Sequence record: PP461118.1
Source: Enterobacteria phage ECP2307
Reading direction: 5' to 3' (one strand)
Length of the DNA stretch: 64,000 bases
Shown here piece after piece: positions 1,307-7,106 of the stretch (position 1 is its first letter; each line of letters begins with the position of its first letter). The notes below the pieces were generated by a model. It was given only the letters and a program-made list of their open reading frames with translations. It ran no database searches and was not told where the DNA came from. The position numbers and the translations under genes were made by a program.

Positions 1307-1379
1307 TTTAGAATCTCCTAGTTTAAGGACTTTATTTAGTGGGGAAGGTCATTCCCTCCCCGTTGATTAGTAATTTACT
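1307..1379 (-). repeat. type A early-gene leader cassette (GC hairpin with AAUGA loop, then SD)
   Basis: About 73 bp, near-identical in 6 copies; minus-sense stem GGGGAGGG/CCUUCCCC. Confidence 0.7.
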
Positions 1380-1638
1380 GCATATCGGCGTATGTTGCAA
1401 GCCTTTTTTCATTGTATTTTGTAAGAATCTCACAAGATAAAACATCATATTTTGTAACAGCATTGCTTTTATCAAGGTCAAAGAATCCGAACGTTTTACC
1501 ATCTTTGAATCCGACAACCTCGTAAGACTCTTTAATGATTTCACCACTGAACAAATCACTTTCGATGCGGTGGAATAGTGCTACATCCTCTTTGTCGGTT
1601 GCAATTTGTAAAAGTGTGGTCAGTTCGACGTGTTCCAT
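1375..1638 (-). CDS. hypothetical early protein (87 aa)
   Basis: ORF with type A leader upstream. Confidence 0.55.
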   Translation of the reverse strand: MEHVELTTLLQIATDKEDVALFHRIESDLFSGEIIKESYEVVGFKDGKTFGFFDLDKSNAVTKYDVLSCEILTKYNEKRLATYADMQ

Positions 1639-1710
1639 TTTGAATCTCCTAGTTTAAGGACTTTATTTAGTGGGGGAGGTCATCCCCCGTTGATTGACAA
1701 TTTACAGACT
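1639..1710 (-). repeat. type A leader cassette, variant stem (GGGGGA/UCCCCC)
   Basis: Same flanks as other type A copies; stem changed but hairpin kept. Confidence 0.65.
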
Positions 1711-2232
1711 TTTGGTTGTCTCGTCAATATCTTTTTCAATATCTTTTAAAGTTTTCTCTAAGTTCTTGATATTGAACGTTAAACCTTCACCGATGGTTTT
1801 AGCGTAACCGCTAGGCCGATGGTCATAAAGGTTAATTTGTTCTACATTGGAGAGGTTGACCATTTCACCGCTTACACCATAAGCTATTGATACAGTATTT
1901 TCAGGTGCGTTGTAAAACTTGTTCAATGACTTGATAGAACGTTCATAAGCCATTTTATAGCTATTTAAAAGGTTTTTAACGTGATTGTGAACGTTTTTAC
2001 ACTCATCCAAGTAAATCCCTAAGAATAGCGGTAATAATTCCGCTACAGCTTGCATAAAGTGTGAGACTACAACGGTTGCAACATTACGACGGTGAACATA
2101 ATAAGCCCCGTTTTCTGATTTGGTGATTGTTGCAAAGTGTACACCATTGCAACGAAATTCGTAGGTATCTTTAACAGGTTTTGACATAACACTATTTGAG
2201 CGGATGTAATTGATAGCTTTAAACTTGTTCAT
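1702..2232 (-). CDS. hypothetical early protein (176 aa)
   Basis: ORF with type A leader upstream. Confidence 0.6.
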   Translation of the reverse strand: MNKFKAINYIRSNSVMSKPVKDTYEFRCNGVHFATITKSENGAYYVHRRNVATVVVSHFMQAVAELLPLFLGIYLDECKNVHNHVKNLLNSYKMAYERSIKSLNKFYNAPENTVSIAYGVSGEMVNLSNVEQINLYDHRPSGYAKTIGEGLTFNIKNLEKTLKDIEKDIDETTKSL

Positions 2233-2305
2233 TTTAGAATCTCCTAGTTTAAGGACTTTATTTAGTGGGGAAGGTCATTCCCTCCCCGTTGATTAGTAAT
2301 TTACT
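2233..2305 (-). repeat. type A leader cassette
   Basis: Near-identical to copy at 1307. Confidence 0.7.
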
Positions 2306-2456
2306 TGATTTGATTTGTCTTTGCAAGCAATTTTTTAAGTTTATCTTTAAAGAAATCTTTTAAGTGAATCCCTTTAAGATAAACCCCCTCGAACAAAGTT
2401 ACCAATGTCAAGAGGGGTTGTCAACACTTTTTTAAAAGTTTTTTGTAAGTTGTTGA

Positions 2457-2798
2457 TTAACTGATGAATATTTTTTCAGGTTTTACGTAGCTGATACGCT
2501 GATTTTTTAGCAGGTCATCCCAGATTATTGCCGCAATATGAGAATAACCAGACTCACGCAAGAGTTTCATTGCTTTACATCTTGTTTCAAATCGGGTTGC
2601 ATAGTACTCACTATTCAAAACAGTTTTCTTCCCCTCGTTATCTGTATGGATAATCTGCATCACTTGAAAGAGGCTGACATCCTCGCCTTTGTTCCACTGC
2701 TCAAAGTATTTTAGGCACTGCATAGGTGACATTTTATCACTTACTTGAGTTGACCAAGATGAATTTTCTTTATCGGTAATTACGGTTACATAAGCCAT
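2457..2798 (-). CDS. hypothetical early protein (113 aa)
   Basis: ORF with type A leader upstream. Confidence 0.6.
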   Translation of the reverse strand: MAYVTVITDKENSSWSTQVSDKMSPMQCLKYFEQWNKGEDVSLFQVMQIIHTDNEGKKTVLNSEYYATRFETRCKAMKLLRESGYSHIAAIIWDDLLKNQRISYVKPEKIFIS

Positions 2799-2870
2799 TT
2801 TAGAATCTCCTAGTTTAAGGACTTTATTTAGTGGGGAAGGTCATTCCCTCCCCGTTGATGTGTAATTTAC
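2799..2870 (-). repeat. type A leader cassette
   Basis: Near-identical to copy at 1307. Confidence 0.7.
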
Positions 2871-2889
2871 AGACTTTTATCAGGCTTGT

Positions 2890-4977: not shown

Positions 4978-5310
4978 TCAAACACTTTGTTTTCGTTTGC
5001 TCAATTCTTGAACAATTACAGCGTGATAGTCTTTCAAGTCACTGATGTTTAAAGCATTTATCAGAGAATTATAATCATCAACTAACTGGAAATCATCTTT
5101 GAAGATGTCACTTATCTGATAGGTTTTCGCTTTATATCTGAAGCTCATCTCTAGCCGCTTTATTTGCTCATCACTTAAACGCCCTAGAAAGCTCTCTACA
5201 AGGTTATTGCTAACTTGCTGTGTGATTGCCTTATTTGCTAGATTATAGGCTTTATATGCCTTATATAGCGCGAAAATGGCAATGATTGCAGTGATACCAG
5301 TCATTAACAT
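4978..5310 (-). CDS. hypothetical membrane protein with N-terminal TM helix (110 aa)
   Basis: ORF; hydrophobic N-terminus; start overlaps upstream stop. Confidence 0.5.
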   Translation of the reverse strand: MLMTGITAIIAIFALYKAYKAYNLANKAITQQVSNNLVESFLGRLSDEQIKRLEMSFRYKAKTYQISDIFKDDFQLVDDYNSLINALNISDLKDYHAVIVQELSKRKQSV

Positions 5311-5600
5311 GGTGTTTCCTCTTTACGTGATACTTTGCCATTTACAGTTATCTCATAGGATTCTAATAAATCGCTTTTAGACTTTACAGGACTTTTAAAA
5401 GTATCATCATAAACATTAATTTGCAATACAGGCTTTTTATACTCCCTGCAACTATTCCATAAGCAAATCACTACACGACGGCCTTTTATTTTGCCGTGTA
5501 ACCATTCCATAACATCATGACTATTCCTTGATGTCTCGATAAAATCAATTTTATTGAGTAATTTGCTAAGGTTTTCCCTAACTTTATTTGATAATTTCAT
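5304..5600 (-). CDS. hypothetical early protein (98 aa)
   Basis: ORF with type B-variant leader upstream. Confidence 0.55.
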   Translation of the reverse strand: MKLSNKVRENLSKLLNKIDFIETSRNSHDVMEWLHGKIKGRRVVICLWNSCREYKKPVLQINVYDDTFKSPVKSKSDLLESYEITVNGKVSRKEETPC

Positions 5601-5691
5601 TTTAGAATCTCCTAGTTTAAGGGTTAATTTGATAAATCTCTTTATCTGGGGCTATCATATCCGCTTGTTAGCCCCGTGTAAAGAAATCTAT
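5601..5691 (-). repeat. type B-variant leader cassette (GGGGCTA..TAGCCCC)
   Basis: Same layout as type B with a compensatory stem change. Confidence 0.6.
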
Positions 5692-6204
5692 TTAGTTCTT
5701 AAAGATATTCATCACTGAATCTTTTAATGCTTCCAAGCGTTCTAATACTTCAGATTCTGCGTCTGCGTTGTTCACTTCCTCTTTTAGTCTGTCATCTAAA
5801 TCATCGCCGTCACTGTAGCACCAATCGAAAGCATAACCAATATAAAAACTTTCTAAAACCGTGCTACCGTTTGCATCTACAACTTTCGCGGCGATGTTAT
5901 ATTCTGAAGCCTCTAAATCTCTTTCTAGTTCTTTCTGTAAGCTCGTGTAAGCCTCTTTCGATGGATTCTCACGGCCTTGTTTTGCATAGTCACTTGAAAG
6001 CTGTTTAAGGCTGTAATGTAAAGGGATTGCATATTTAAATTCATTACGCTGACAGTTGGGATTTTTAATAGTCACACCGCCTTGATGGTCATCTGTAAAT
6101 TCCCAATTATCAAGATTATGGCTTGCTTCAAAGCAATTAACTGCTTCGTAAATGATGGAAAATTTTTCTTTTACAACTTCAAAGGTAGCGTCTACAGTTT
6201 TCAT
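5692..6204 (-). CDS. hypothetical acidic early protein (170 aa)
   Basis: ORF with type B leader upstream. Confidence 0.6.
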   Translation of the reverse strand: MKTVDATFEVVKEKFSIIYEAVNCFEASHNLDNWEFTDDHQGGVTIKNPNCQRNEFKYAIPLHYSLKQLSSDYAKQGRENPSKEAYTSLQKELERDLEASEYNIAAKVVDANGSTVLESFYIGYAFDWCYSDGDDLDDRLKEEVNNADAESEVLERLEALKDSVMNIFKN

Positions 6205-6292
6205 TTTTGAATCTCCAGTTTAGGATTGAGTGGTAAAGCTCTTTATCTGGGGCTTACTTTATCGAACTATAAGCCCCTTGTAAAGTACTTTA
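6205..6292 (-). repeat. type B leader cassette
   Basis: Near-identical to copy at 3733. Confidence 0.7.
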
Positions 6293-6550
6293 TCAGATTA
6301 AATTGCCAGTTAAAGATAAGTGCATTTTGTAACCTTGTTTAGTGAACACGTTCACTTTACCGAGTGTTTTTACACCTTTAAAAAGGTTGTTTGAACTGCG
6401 TTTTAAAGTTAACTGTTTATCAACCTTCACGCCCCACCTTACAGCAGATTGTTTTCCGTTGTCAACCACTTTCCCGCATAACTTTTTAGCCATGATACGA
6501 GCGTCATCACGAGTCTTTGCGGTAATTACAACGTTTTTGATAATAGCCAT
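6293..6550 (-). CDS. hypothetical basic early protein (85 aa)
   Basis: Start moved to ATG (MAIIKN) preceded by GGAG; track start lies in the leader. Confidence 0.55.
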   Translation of the reverse strand: MAIIKNVVITAKTRDDARIMAKKLCGKVVDNGKQSAVRWGVKVDKQLTLKRSSNNLFKGVKTLGKVNVFTKQGYKMHLSLTGNLI

Positions 6551-6636
6551 TTTTAAGTTCTCCAATTTAGGATTTAGTGGTAAAGCTCTTTATCTGGGGC
6601 TTACTTTATCGAACTATAAGCCCCTTGTAAAGTACT
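6551..6636 (-). repeat. type B leader cassette
   Basis: Near-identical to copy at 3733. Confidence 0.7.
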
Positions 6637-7020
6637 TTATTTGTTAATTTTGAAGATAGTTACATAACCATCGCTGCCGATGATTTGTGATGCTCCAGCT
6701 TTTTCCACTGAATAGCCCATATTCTCAAGGTGGTAAACAGCATCATCATAACCATATGCGCCGCCCTGATAACGTCTCTTATCGCATCTTATCAGGTTTT
6801 TACCACGTCCTGCAAGTGCATTCAGTACAGCTTTTTCACTTGATAGCGTACCATCTAACATGGTTGCTGTGTAATGGTTGATTCTATTCCCGTTTACATC
6901 ATACTTAAAATTGAATGCGTGAACAACGATAATGTTACCTTTAAAATTTTCATCAAGTGACTTCTCCAGTGCGTTGCGAAAGTTGTCTTTGTTGATGAAT
7001 TTAGGTGCACGGTATGCCAT
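6637..7020 (-). CDS. hypothetical early protein (127 aa)
   Basis: Start moved to ATG (MAYRAP) preceded by GGAG. Confidence 0.55.
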   Translation of the reverse strand: MAYRAPKFINKDNFRNALEKSLDENFKGNIIVVHAFNFKYDVNGNRINHYTATMLDGTLSSEKAVLNALAGRGKNLIRCDKRRYQGGAYGYDDAVYHLENMGYSVEKAGASQIIGSDGYVTIFKINK

Positions 7021-7106
7021 TTTTAAGTTCTCCAATTTAGGATTTAGTGGTAAAGCTCTTTATCTGGGGCTTAAGATATCAGCTTTTAAGCCCCCTGTAA
7101 AGTACT
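7021..7106 (-). repeat. type B leader cassette (stem kept, loop differs)
   Basis: GGGGCTTAA..TTAAGCCCC with a different loop. Confidence 0.65.

Follow-up and report, generated by a model that had tools for sequence, protein, structure and literature searches.

Repeated cassettes of predicted promoter, RNA hairpin and ribosome-binding site before small genes of a Felix O1-like phage resemble the promoter-early stem-loops of T4-like phages

The promoter-early stem-loops (PeSLs) of T4-like phages are elements for which promoter as well as terminator activities have been measured and whose stem-loops, G-T pairs included, lie at or around the -10 hexamer; the stem-loop of PeSL 211/210 cut lacZ expression as much as rrnB T1 did (Arbiol et al., 2010, PMC2839356; Comeau et al., 2014, PMC4122927). 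In PAK_P1-like Pseudomonas phages, which are relatives of Felix O1, a 41-nt sequence with a sigma-70 early promoter is repeated between genes (2015, PMC4309531), and bacterial terminators coupled to promoters are the subject of a recent preprint (Fletcher et al., bioRxiv 2026, 10.64898/2026.08.19.745784). The repeat family of a Felix O1-like phage described here is real, but of a kind already known from the PeSLs.

The window, i.e. the whole 64-kb stretch of DNA that was analysed, comes from phage ECP2307, a Felix O1-like Felixounavirus of the subfamily Ounavirinae and hence not a T4-like phage; a similarity search with its early-gene region gave 253 records of Felix O1-like phages, about 90% identical. 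One genome end carries 15 small genes (1058-7313), 13 of which have a cassette in front of them. A sequence-only reading had proposed that nearly every one of these genes is preceded by a conserved leader; repeat finding and nhmmer confirmed the repeats, six of type A and six of type B, upstream of 12 of the 15 genes, to which a related "type C" adds the first gene (ATG 7313), leaving two of the 15 without. One of those two (4978-5310) overlaps its upstream neighbor and the other (2890-3123) follows a terminator-like hairpin in place of a cassette. The type A copies have their ATGs at plus-strand coordinates 1306, 1638, 2232, 2798, 4021 and 4887, the type B copies at 3732, 4529, 6204, 6550, 7020 and, for a variant, 5600, with nhmmer E-values of 1e-20 to 1e-28. 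Copies of 75-95 nt are 85-100% identical to each other, and each type A or B copy lies on the minus strand immediately upstream of a minus-strand ORF (span 1304-7109). The 13 cassettes lie within 6.3 kb; nhmmer profile searches place none in the rest of the 64 kb, and repeat finding together with nhmmer profiles made from the copies returned no further full type A or B copy across the window. [quoted passage not shown] In the paper on Felix O1 and in the GenBank record of wV8, these sequences appear only as direct repeats, and a literature search found no Felix O1-like phage for which start sites, 3' ends or promoter activities had been measured. The features are as follows, the hexamers being those of predicted promoters:

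1002..1019, minus strand: canonical intrinsic terminator closing the cluster, AGCCCC-UUAAAU-GGGGCU + U6
1020..1047, minus strand: promoter-less relic of a type B 3' half after the last cluster gene, GGGGCUA-UU-UAGCCCC-AGAUA..CUUUACA
1304..1400, minus strand: cassette A1 (type A), -35 TTGCAA 1400-1395, -10 TAAATT 1377-1372, hairpin 1361-1341, SD GGAG 1318-1315, ATG 1306-1304
1636..1727, minus strand: cassette A2 (type A), -35 TTGACG within the upstream ORF, -10 TAAATT 1704-1699, variant hairpin GGGGGA-UGACC-UCCCCC 1688-1672
2230..2326, minus strand: cassette A3 (type A), -35 TTGCAA, -10 TAAATT 2303-2298, hairpin 2287-2267
2376..2424, minus strand: promoter-in-hairpin upstream of cassette A3, unlike the cassettes in sequence, TTGACA-17-TAACTT, arms CCCCUC/GAGGGG, tail GUUUAUCUU
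2796..2892, minus strand: cassette A4 (type A), -35 TAGACA, -10 TAAATT 2869-2864, hairpin 2853-2833
3137..3158, minus strand: terminator-like hairpin upstream of gene 2890-3123, in the sole long intergenic region without a cassette, AGCCCC-UUAC-AGGGGCU + UUUU
3730..3820, minus strand: cassette B1 (type B), -35 TTTACA 3812-3807, -10 TAAAGT 3789-3784, inner hairpin 3805-3777, compound hairpin 3820-3762, SD 3743-3740
4019..4115, minus strand: cassette A5 (type A), -35 TTGATT, -10 TAAATT 4092-4087, hairpin 4076-4056
4527..4617, minus strand: cassette B2 (type B), TTTACA-17-TAAAGT, compound hairpin 4617-4559
4885..4981, minus strand: cassette A6 (type A), -35 TTGACA overlapping the upstream stop codon, -10 TAAATT 4958-4953, hairpin 4942-4922
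5598..5690, minus strand: cassette Bv (type B variant), TTTACA-17-TATGAT, stem GGGGCUA/UAGCCCC; outer stem re-paired with different bases, 3' module of the A type, thus a chimera
6202..6292, minus strand: cassette B3 (type B), TTTACA-17-TAAAGT, compound hairpin 6292-6234
6548..6639, minus strand: cassette B4 (type B), TTTACA-17-TAAAGT, compound hairpin 6639-6581
7018..7109, minus strand: cassette B5 (type B), TTTACA-17-TATCTT, stem GGGGCUUAA/UUAAGCCCC
7311..7391, minus strand: type C cassette of the first cluster gene, TTGACT-17-TAATAT, 11 nt, hairpin GGGC-AAUCAA-GCCC (7351-7338), common b-type leader and SD; relatives have a type A hairpin at this position
7749..7790, minus strand: intrinsic terminator after a macro-domain gene, corresponding to Felix O1 t13 and dividing the upstream operon from the cassette cluster

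Judged by its letters, each cassette holds a sigma-70-type (host-type) promoter, which was missed when the repeats were taken simply for leaders. The architecture and its conservation are observed directly; promoter activity and start sites we infer from them. The type B layout is TTTACA-17-TAnnnT, and all 82 type B cassettes of 13 genomes in three genera can be parsed as TTTACA-N17(18)-TAnnnT. An alignment of 60 distinct type B copies has positions 1, 2 and 6 of the -10 (T1, A2, T6) invariant in a loop that is otherwise variable, and a promoter consensus scan independently flags six of the six type B copies in the window. In type A (TTGnnn-17-TAAATT) the repeat itself does not include the -35: exactly 17 nt upstream of TAAATT, each of the six window copies has a hexamer that agrees with TTGACA at four or more of six positions, at a base rate of 5.5% per position for such hexamers, in a flank that is otherwise just 7-16/23 identical between copies and partly within upstream ORFs. 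The type A -35 is thus conserved in function and not in sequence, which counts against a role as processing site only. By the same rule, 53 of 56 type A-like cassettes of relatives could be parsed automatically, 51 of them with the 17-nt spacing between -35 and -10 and 50 with 9-11 nt between -10 and hairpin. Against the promoter reading stands that the -10 hexamers have just four of six consensus matches. GGAG precedes the ATG by 7-9 nt in all cassettes, in line with the Shine-Dalgarno sequence noticed before (given as 6-9 nt), and the leader is common to types A and B, a single 3' module that had escaped the sequence-only reading, as had the type B compound hairpin of 19 bp.

With a promoter in each cassette, every small gene would form a separate transcription unit for the host RNA polymerase to read early in infection. 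No RNA polymerase gene is present in Felix O1, and in that phage RT-PCR places the cluster ORFs 16, 20, 21 and 22 at 5 min and ORFs 17, 19 and 23 at 25 min, the latter indicating that not all cluster genes peak early. The whole cluster also has a strong predicted promoter upstream of it (TTGACT-17-TAATAT, 7391-7363) and one canonical terminator after it.

The type A hairpin GGGGAGGG/CCUUCCCC contains one G.U pair in the minus-sense RNA that would be an A-C mismatch on the other strand, and it folds at -13.7 kcal/mol as opposed to -10.3 kcal/mol; the strand bias noted earlier is directly observed, with the exception of copy A2, whose stem GGGGGA/UCCCCC pairs perfectly on either strand. Sense folds are generally stabler than antisense folds, yet this is the case for just 11 of 21 distinct type A variants. 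Three independent positions have G.U wobbles that pair on the sense strand alone, and in Mooglevirus such wobbles prevail. The hairpins of types A and C have 4-8 pairs (type A 8); in type A, pair 6 is G.U, G:C or A:U by copy, and other hairpins substitute at the same position. The type A hairpin begins 10 nt beyond the -10, or at about +3 of the predicted mRNA that it belongs to, and the distance is 10-11 nt in all seven type A and C copies of the window, the start site being predicted. The hairpin of type A is at the very 5' end of the predicted transcript. In type B, the promoter spacer holds the 5' arm and the loop holds the -10, and since the 3' arm stops at the predicted +1, the whole hairpin is upstream of the predicted start. 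There, the upstream stop codon and the -35 region form an outer helix with +4 to +15, and the resulting compound hairpin between cistrons has 20 pairs (6+5+9) with a 3x3 internal loop and a single mismatch; its folding energy is -24 to -27 kcal/mol, with z from -3.4 to -5.4. The G-run/C-run stem-loops fold at -4.7 to -16 kcal/mol, G.U pairs included, the three main type A forms and all inner type B hairpins at -10 kcal/mol or below.

In the type B stem, 97.3% of cells pair, compared with 31-58% when partners are slid. That variants keep the hairpin through compensatory changes is borne out by a few cases: pair 22:44 is C:G (32), U.G (27) or U:A (1), pair 7:59 is G:C (44) or U:A (11), and in Erwinia phages GGUG/CACC replaces GGGG/CCCC. 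This covariation must be taken with caution, since most stem pairs are invariant and since the covarying cells come from related copies and may go back to few independent events. No type A or B hairpin has a U-tract behind it (1-2 of the next 8 nt are U; tails ACUAAAUA in type A and AGAUAAAG in type B), and a scan for intrinsic terminators matched 1019-1002, 7790-7749 and one unrelated weak site, which agrees with the earlier view that these are not standard terminators. Rfam covariance models gave no family match, with mir-980 alone at chance level (21.9 bits, gathering threshold 47, E = 0.43). The architecture is kept in four Ounavirinae genera.

From these structures, insulation, RNA stability or processing would be the role of the hairpins. 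Termination by them is doubtful given the lack of U-tracts, and an efficient terminator is impossible at about +3 of a transcript, where type A has its hairpin. Because the type B hairpin ends at the predicted start site, it is absent from the 5' UTR of the following gene and would exist solely in RNA reading through from the upstream gene; most likely, the compound hairpin serves to mark and protect the upstream message at its 3' end, whether as an attenuator, as a block to exonucleases or as a site for RNase III, and would insulate the adjoining transcription units. Starting at about +3 or +4 of the mRNA that carries them, the hairpins of types A and C most likely act as 5'-terminal stabilizing stem-loops, a hairpin close to the mRNA 5' end being a geometry known to slow RNase E-dependent decay.

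The proposal that the cassettes are modules for recombination finds support in the relatives, where recombinant junctions are directly seen. All six combinations of the 5' modules (A, B, C) with the 3' modules (a, b) occur in Felixounavirus. One gene family stands behind A, B or C depending on the phage, and another is found at two cluster positions. Phage momo lacks one gene, with a crossover within the cassette that left a chimera, and phage Michonne has a tandem duplication of cassette and gene. Cassettes are 86.9% similar within one genome and 84.0% similar at the same position in another genus, and the gene content of the cluster differs among 13 genomes. Since copies of 75-95 nt are 85-100% identical, they would serve as sites of homologous recombination, by which copies are homogenized and genes added, removed, duplicated or moved, although breakpoints of gene gain and loss would be intergenic anyway if selection removes events that disrupt genes. 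Nine cluster proteins scanned against PHROGs matched only families of unknown function, and against Pfam no cluster protein scored above a curated cut-off, a weak sub-threshold match to DUF3139 being the only one.

We assign a probability of about 0.72 to the cassettes being composite expression units of the PeSL type (promoter, RNA hairpin, ribosome-binding site), a joint figure for the whole explanation as promoter, hairpin and recombination cassette. Alternatively, one long polycistronic transcript could cover the early genes, as in the early region of T7, with the hairpins mainly serving its processing; the promoter hexamers would then be weak or incidental, and RNase III would cut the type B compound hairpin between cistrons. 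The shape of that hairpin (6+5+9 pairs, 3x3 internal loop, one mismatch, intercistronic, z down to -5.4) and its outer helix that takes in the upstream stop codon would suit such a role, as would hairpins without U-tracts and a cluster with one strong promoter upstream and one canonical terminator after it. We nevertheless regard it as unlikely, since a processing site does not need an invariant T1, A2 and T6 within a variable loop or a type A -35 kept in function and not in sequence, and since the type A and C hairpins, with 4-8 pairs, are too short for RNase III; moreover, processing can coexist with promoters rather than replace them.

That the inverted repeats are DNA operators for a dimeric protein, of phage or host origin, that turns the early promoters off or on appears very improbable. 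The candidate sites (TAAAGnnCTTTA at -44 and +3, plus GGGGCTTA/TAAGCCCC around the -10) overlap -35, -10 and +1, and CCCCAGATAAAGAG and CTTTACA are invariant in nearly all 82 type B copies of three genera, beyond the needs of pairing, one copy deviating with ...AAGAA. A similar idea was raised by the PeSL authors (PMC2839356; PMC4122927), and a heading in the Fletcher preprint states that palindromes of terminator stem-loops can double as transcription-factor sites (10.64898/2026.08.19.745784). However, G.U pairs form on the sense strand alone at three independent positions, as the majority state in Mooglevirus, and the outer-helix changes fall on the left side of the first palindrome and on the right side of the second one, which are RNA pairing partners and not partners within one operator, which argues against operators. 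Furthermore, unrelated sequences replace the type A hairpins at the same position, and no candidate regulator was found. Least probable of all is that each gene has an ordinary terminator and that the repeats are duplicated terminator-plus-RBS spacers without promoter function: the strong effect of the PeSL 211/210 stem-loop on lacZ, matching rrnB T1, and TransTerm-type annotations in the wV8 record at two cassettes, though on the opposite strand, are outweighed by conserved promoter hexamers, by the lack of a U-tract after any A or B hairpin and by a type A hairpin that lies within its own predicted transcript.

Several known systems share part of this architecture with the composite expression units preferred here. 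The early RNase III sites of T7 are long imperfect intercistronic hairpins with an internal loop that leave a protective 3' stem on the upstream mRNA, and the type B compound hairpin is similar in size and shape; unlike the cassettes, the T7 sites lack a promoter, the hairpin of type A falls short of such a length, and cleavage is putative here. The ompA 5' UTR reportedly carries a 5'-terminal stabilizing stem-loop (Emory, Bouvet and Belasco in 1992), which the type A and C hairpins resemble by lying about 2-4 nt from the predicted 5' end. The PAK_P1-like motif (TTGACA-N17-TAgAAT) is similar to the cassettes in its early-region location and its unusually perfect conservation around the hexamers, and differs in sequence and in having 2-6 copies only; the paper has no hairpin, common RBS module or recombination role (PMC4309531). 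Phage Pae01 has inverted-repeat arms on either side of the -10, with GC hairpins behind other promoters. In the elements of Fletcher et al., end and start signals of successive units likewise overlap within about 10 bp, the stem-loop providing the -35 and the T-tract the spacer before the -10 (10.64898/2026.08.19.745784), whereas here the stem-loop encloses the -10 and has no T-tract.

The closest known system is the PeSL. Cassettes of the present cluster differ from it in belonging to a separate phage lineage (Ounavirinae), in that a single cluster has all copies, which fall into just two or three discrete families with 85-100% identity across 75-95 nt, and in the extra outer helix of type B, where the -35 region pairs with the start of the transcribed region; the formation of mini-circles and promoter and terminator activity are features of PeSLs, while the cassettes are known from their sequence. 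A BLAST of the cassettes against 50,697 phage records had no T4-like phage among the named organism groups (Ounavirinae-type hosts), four records (Staphylococcus, Campylobacter and two others) being left out of this reading, and the relationship looks like analogy and not homology, with PeSLs compared by their description. Both share an A/T-rich stretch, a sigma-70-like promoter (TTTACW-N17-TAYWAT in the PeSLs of T4 and PST, TTTACA-N17-TAnnnT in type B) and a stem-loop of the GGGG...CCCC type that includes G-T pairs and is placed within the spacer, across the -10 or directly behind it, ahead of Shine-Dalgarno sequence and ATG. Both cluster in regions rich in small genes whose functions are unknown and which differ from one close relative to the next, and both include chimeric cassettes as well as gene gain and loss with a crossover within the cassette. 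Taken together, the layout from stop codon to GGAG and ATG, the promoter spacing, the stem-loop, the clustering and the crossovers of PeSLs are all found here at the level of sequence.

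The repeated units in front of the small genes of this cluster are best explained as promoter, hairpin and ribosome-binding-site cassettes of the kind known from T4-like phages as promoter-early stem-loops (PeSLs), which are also substrates of recombination. The minus strand carries every gene from 7313 down to 1058, and positions 1000-7400 match 253 phage records at about 90% identity, nearly all of them Felix O1-like myoviruses (of Escherichia, Salmonella, Shigella and Citrobacter), which identifies the window as part of an approximately 88-kb Felixounavirus genome. The Felix O1 counterpart of the cluster comprises ORFs 15-23, between the terminators t13 and t23. 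In the window the cluster is bounded by:

7790-7749, minus strand: intrinsic terminator, which with about 500 nt of non-coding DNA lies ahead of the cluster
1019-1002, minus strand: intrinsic terminator that closes the cluster

No function is annotated for the cluster genes in Pfam (all 15 proteins) or PHROGs (nine proteins), and Rfam, scanned over 1-9000 with a permissive E-value, gave no real match. The gene just upstream of the cluster (7820-8605, minus strand) has a product with a macro domain (Pfam PF01661, E = 2e-7) and is annotated as 'phosphatase' in relatives. The non-coding DNA at 7320-7820 contains, at 7570-7671 on the plus strand, three copies of TCTGCACrnTTyGAAAAT and more GTGCAG-containing repeats; they lie upstream of the promoter that opens the cluster (TTGACT-17-TAATAT, 7391-7363 on the minus strand) and may be binding sites of a regulator. 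At the other end, a promoter-less remnant of the type B 3' half (hairpin plus AGAUA..CUUUACA; 1020-1047, minus strand) follows the last gene directly before the terminator, which suggests that the cluster once extended further. Just past the cluster end, non-coding positions 1-680 hold 24 of the window's 137 YTAACA motifs within 1% of the sequence, mostly on the plus strand and often spaced by 10-11 or 20-21 nt; this array may mark a genome-end (direct terminal repeat), packaging or origin region, and a comparable TTCTAAAC motif array is located at the same place in Erwinia phage Panisse (about 12900-13000).

The sequence-only reading had described the cassettes as leaders of two conserved types. 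The repeats themselves are borne out by repeat finding and profile searches, which recover six type A and six type B copies (E 1e-20 to 1e-28) and no further full copies within the 64 kb, while the promoters inside them had been overlooked. In gene orientation, type A reads TAAATTACTAATCAAC-GGGGAGGGAATGACCTTCCCC-ACTAAATAAAGTCCTTAAACTAGGAGATTCTAAAATG and type B TAAAGTACTTTACAAGGGGCTTATAGTTCGATAAAGTAAGCCCCAGATAAAGAGCTTTACCACTAAATCCTAAATTGGAGATTCAAAAATG, and one or the other precedes 12 of the 15 cluster genes. Ahead of the first gene stands a related cassette whose small hairpin differs (type C); of the two remaining genes, one overlaps its upstream neighbour and one is preceded by a terminator-like hairpin. 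Both types share a 3' module, CCACTAAAT...CCT(T)AAACT(A)GGAGA...ATG, in which the GGAG Shine-Dalgarno sequence lies 7-9 nt upstream of the ATG. The leaders also contain a short anti-SD/SD mini-hairpin (e.g., 2241-2256 and 6560-6575, both minus strand; 7120-7150 in Panisse), with the form UCCU-UAAACU-AGGA in 3' module a, UCC-UAAAYU-GGA in module b, and CCUU-AUA-AAGG or CCUC-AAA-GAGG in Erwinia phages. Its complementarity survives both the paired insertion of T/A and the replacement of U:A by C:G; being very weak, the helix may be a coincidence.

The type B promoter reads TTTACA, 17 nt, TAAAGT and is flagged by a consensus scan in all six window copies. The parse TTTACA-N17(18)-TAnnnT holds for 82 of 82 type B cassettes from 13 genomes (Felixounavirus, Mooglevirus and Suspvirus), with the -10 variants TAAAGT, TATCTT, TACAGT, TATAGT, TAAGAT, TAGTAT, TATGAT, TACCAT, TACCTT and TAGGAT. 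In an alignment of 60 distinct copies, positions 1, 2 and 6 of this hexamer are invariant and the loop around them is variable, a pattern required by a -10 element and not by a hairpin loop. The type A repeat starts at TAAATT, and 17 nt upstream of it the six window copies carry TTGCAA, TTGACG, TTGCAA, TAGACA, TTGATT and TTGACA, preceded by A-runs, in a flank that is otherwise identical among copies at 7-16 of 23 positions and in two cases is the 3' end of the upstream ORF. Since hexamers with at least 4/6 matches occur at 5.5% of positions on the same strand, six out of six at a fixed distance are not due to chance, and the same rule automatically parsed 53 of 56 type A-like cassettes of relatives. 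The predicted start is an A about 7-8 nt past the -10, in AAC just before GGGG for type A and in AGAUAAAG for type B. The predicted promoter part of the cassettes is well supported by these patterns. An element at 2376-2424 (minus strand), 150 nt upstream of the type A cassette at 2230..2326, places a promoter (TTGACA-17-TAACTT) in a hairpin whose arms CCCCUC/GAGGGG flank the -10 and whose tail is rich in U, following the design principle of type B without sequence similarity to the cassettes.

According to the Felix O1 paper, the phage has no RNA polymerase of its own and apparently no protein that modifies the specificity of the host polymerase, and how transcription passes the phage's many terminators is left open. 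RT-PCR in Felix O1 assigned ORFs 16, 20, 21 and 22 to the 5-min time point and ORFs 17, 19 and 23 to that of 25 min, so that the 'early' status of the cluster is only partly documented. No transcript-end mapping for any Felixounavirus was found in the searchable literature.

The two main cassette types place their hairpins differently relative to the promoter. In type B, the spacer contains the 5' arm GGGGCUUA, the loop contains the -10, and the 3' arm UAAGCCCC ends at about -1. Transcription is predicted to start at the A in the invariant AGATAAAG, so that the mRNA of the gene itself would lack the hairpin, which would be present only in read-through RNA from the upstream gene. Folding predicts an outer helix (UAAAGU/GCUUUA and CUUUA/UAAAG) that includes the upstream stop codon, then a 3x3 internal loop before the inner stem, with about 20 pairs in the whole hairpin, -24 to -27 kcal/mol and z-scores of -3.4 to -5.4. 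In types A and C, the hairpin follows the -10 after 10-11 nt in 7/7 window copies and most copies of relatives, leaving about 2-4 nt between it and the predicted 5' end.

In the type B alignment, 97.3% of cells are paired as compared with 31-58% with slid partners; most pairs are invariant and thus uninformative either way. That variant copies keep the stem through paired changes is upheld: type B pair 22:44 occurs as C:G (32), U.G (27) and U:A (1) and outer pair 7:59 as G:C (44) and U:A (11), type A pair 6 is mostly G.U, with G:C in a single copy of Felix O1 and A:U in a single copy of SUSP2, and in the Erwinia phages of Kolesnikvirus GGUG...CACC replaces GGGG...CCCC in otherwise homologous cassettes. 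Type A loops include GAAUGAC, GAAA and GAGA, and some phages carry unrelated hairpins (GGGGC...GCCCC, GGGC...GCCC) at the type A position. The covariation evidence is real but modest. In line with the proposal of an RNA-level element, the hairpins look like elements of coding-strand RNA. Every recurrent wobble is G.U on the sense strand and A-C on the opposite one, and the sense fold of type B is more stable in 39 of 54 variants (Wilcoxon p = 0.002, with copies that are not independent), whereas the distinct type A variants split 11 to 10. A function of the antisense strand was rejected, as its folds are weaker on average and the wobbles become A-C mismatches.

As to what the hairpins do, the scan found no canonical terminator at any cassette and no U-tract after the hairpins, in agreement with the earlier view that they are not standard terminators, and a type A hairpin at +3 of its own transcript cannot be an efficient one. 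The best reading of their placement is that type A and C hairpins would act as 5'-terminal stabilisers and the type B compound hairpin as a 3'-end or insulator element of the upstream message, which could work through attenuation, by blocking exonucleases or as a site for RNase III. A further reading would make the cassettes more than passive repeats: the type B compound hairpin, which takes in the stop codon of the upstream gene and reaches to the start site of the next, would be a switch that ties translation termination and RNase III/exonuclease processing of the upstream message to the firing of the next promoter, and/or the invariant CCCCAGATAAAGAG/CTTTACA core would be the target of a dedicated phage protein that lets Ounavirinae genera capture early genes in an integron-like way, excise them as mini-circles and exchange them; we regard this as improbable. 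In IMG/VR, multi-copy matches to CCCCAGATAAAGAG are confined to contigs about 73-92 kb long, a size that would fit Felix O1-like genomes, and single matches elsewhere correspond to the chance expectation for a 14-mer, so that the scan gave no new information. A link to RegB, prompted by a 'T4 RegB-like endoribonuclease' near rIIB in two relatives (Mushroom and Panisse) and by the RegB target GGAG in all cassettes, was dropped; the window homologue (11314-11862, minus strand) has a sub-threshold SLT match in Pfam and falls into a PHROG of unknown function, and the annotation in the relatives looks unsupported.

The order of the cluster genes is conserved across three genera, and the small gene families gained or lost include g2, g10, g12, g15, g17, g19, g20, g22 and g32-g35; g15 (1375-1638 in the window) is present in only 122 records. 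Family g20 is preceded by B, C or A depending on the phage, g17 occupies two places in the cluster, and g13 has type A in most Felixounavirus genomes and type B in wV8 and Mooglevirus. Since whole-gene indels would break between genes anyway, the informative evidence lies in in-register chimeras and reassorted modules, and on these the suggestion of recombination modules stands. Phage momo lacks g15, and its remaining cassette joins the 5' part of the window's g15 cassette to the 3' part of the g16 cassette. In Citrobacter phage Michonne (2780-2960) a type B cassette and its gene are duplicated in tandem, with a junction, ...GGAGAATCTAAAATG|CTTTACATGGGG, at which the ATG end of one cassette meets the next -35 via a short shared TAAARTG. 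In Felixounavirus all six combinations of 5' types with 3' modules occur (Aa 30, Ab 12, Ba 17, Bb 32, Ca 1, Cb 4). Mean type B identity is 86.9% within a genome, 84.0% at the same position in another genus and 83.0% between non-orthologous copies across genera, with only 75.4% for neighbouring ORF starts, a pattern in keeping with concerted evolution under constraint.

Felix O1-like phages are widely used in typing of Salmonella and E. coli, in biocontrol and in therapy. For a region whose annotation has so far consisted only of 'direct repeats' and 'hypothetical proteins', the analysis provides 13 predicted promoters with start sites; the cassettes offer compact natural parts and landing sites for engineering, together with a warning that the cluster region is recombination-prone. 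In Felix O1, pieces of 57 bp and 39 bp were reported only as direct repeats, the wV8 GenBank record annotates DR_1 to DR_9 without comment and the wV8 paper does not discuss them, and the published description of a 41-nt promoter repeat in PAK_P1-like phages, relatives of Felix O1, makes no mention of hairpins (PMC4309531). No link between PeSLs and Felix O1-like phages was found in the searchable papers.

The features of PeSLs and of the Ounavirinae cassettes match one by one. Both have a stop codon and an A/T-rich stretch, a sigma-70 promoter (TTTACW-N17-TAYWAT for PeSLs in T4/PST), a G/C stem-loop that includes G-T pairs and is located between the promoter boxes, across the -10 or shortly past it, and a Shine-Dalgarno sequence with ATG; both cluster in hyperplastic regions among genes of unknown function and show crossovers inside the cassettes. 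PeSL promoters proved so strong that clones acquired mutations, and the PeSL 211/210 stem-loop lowered lacZ expression as much as rrnB T1 (Arbiol et al. 2010, PMC2839356; Comeau et al. 2014, PMC4122927). In Pseudomonas phage Pae01, a distant Felix O1 relative, early intergenic TTGACA-N16/17-TAGAAT promoters (4586-4656, 5781-5850, 6379-6448 and 7927-7999) have inverted-repeat arms that bracket the -10 or fall in the spacer, or are closely followed by a GC hairpin. BLAST of the cassettes returned no T4-like phages among the organism groups listed, which cover all but a few records, so that the likeness looks like analogy rather than homology. Taken together, the comparison carries the PeSL idea of self-contained cassettes, which serve both the expression and the shuffling of accessory early genes, beyond T4-like phages into an unrelated subfamily of myoviruses, and the lack of evident homology points to a convergent, general solution for organising fast-evolving early regions.
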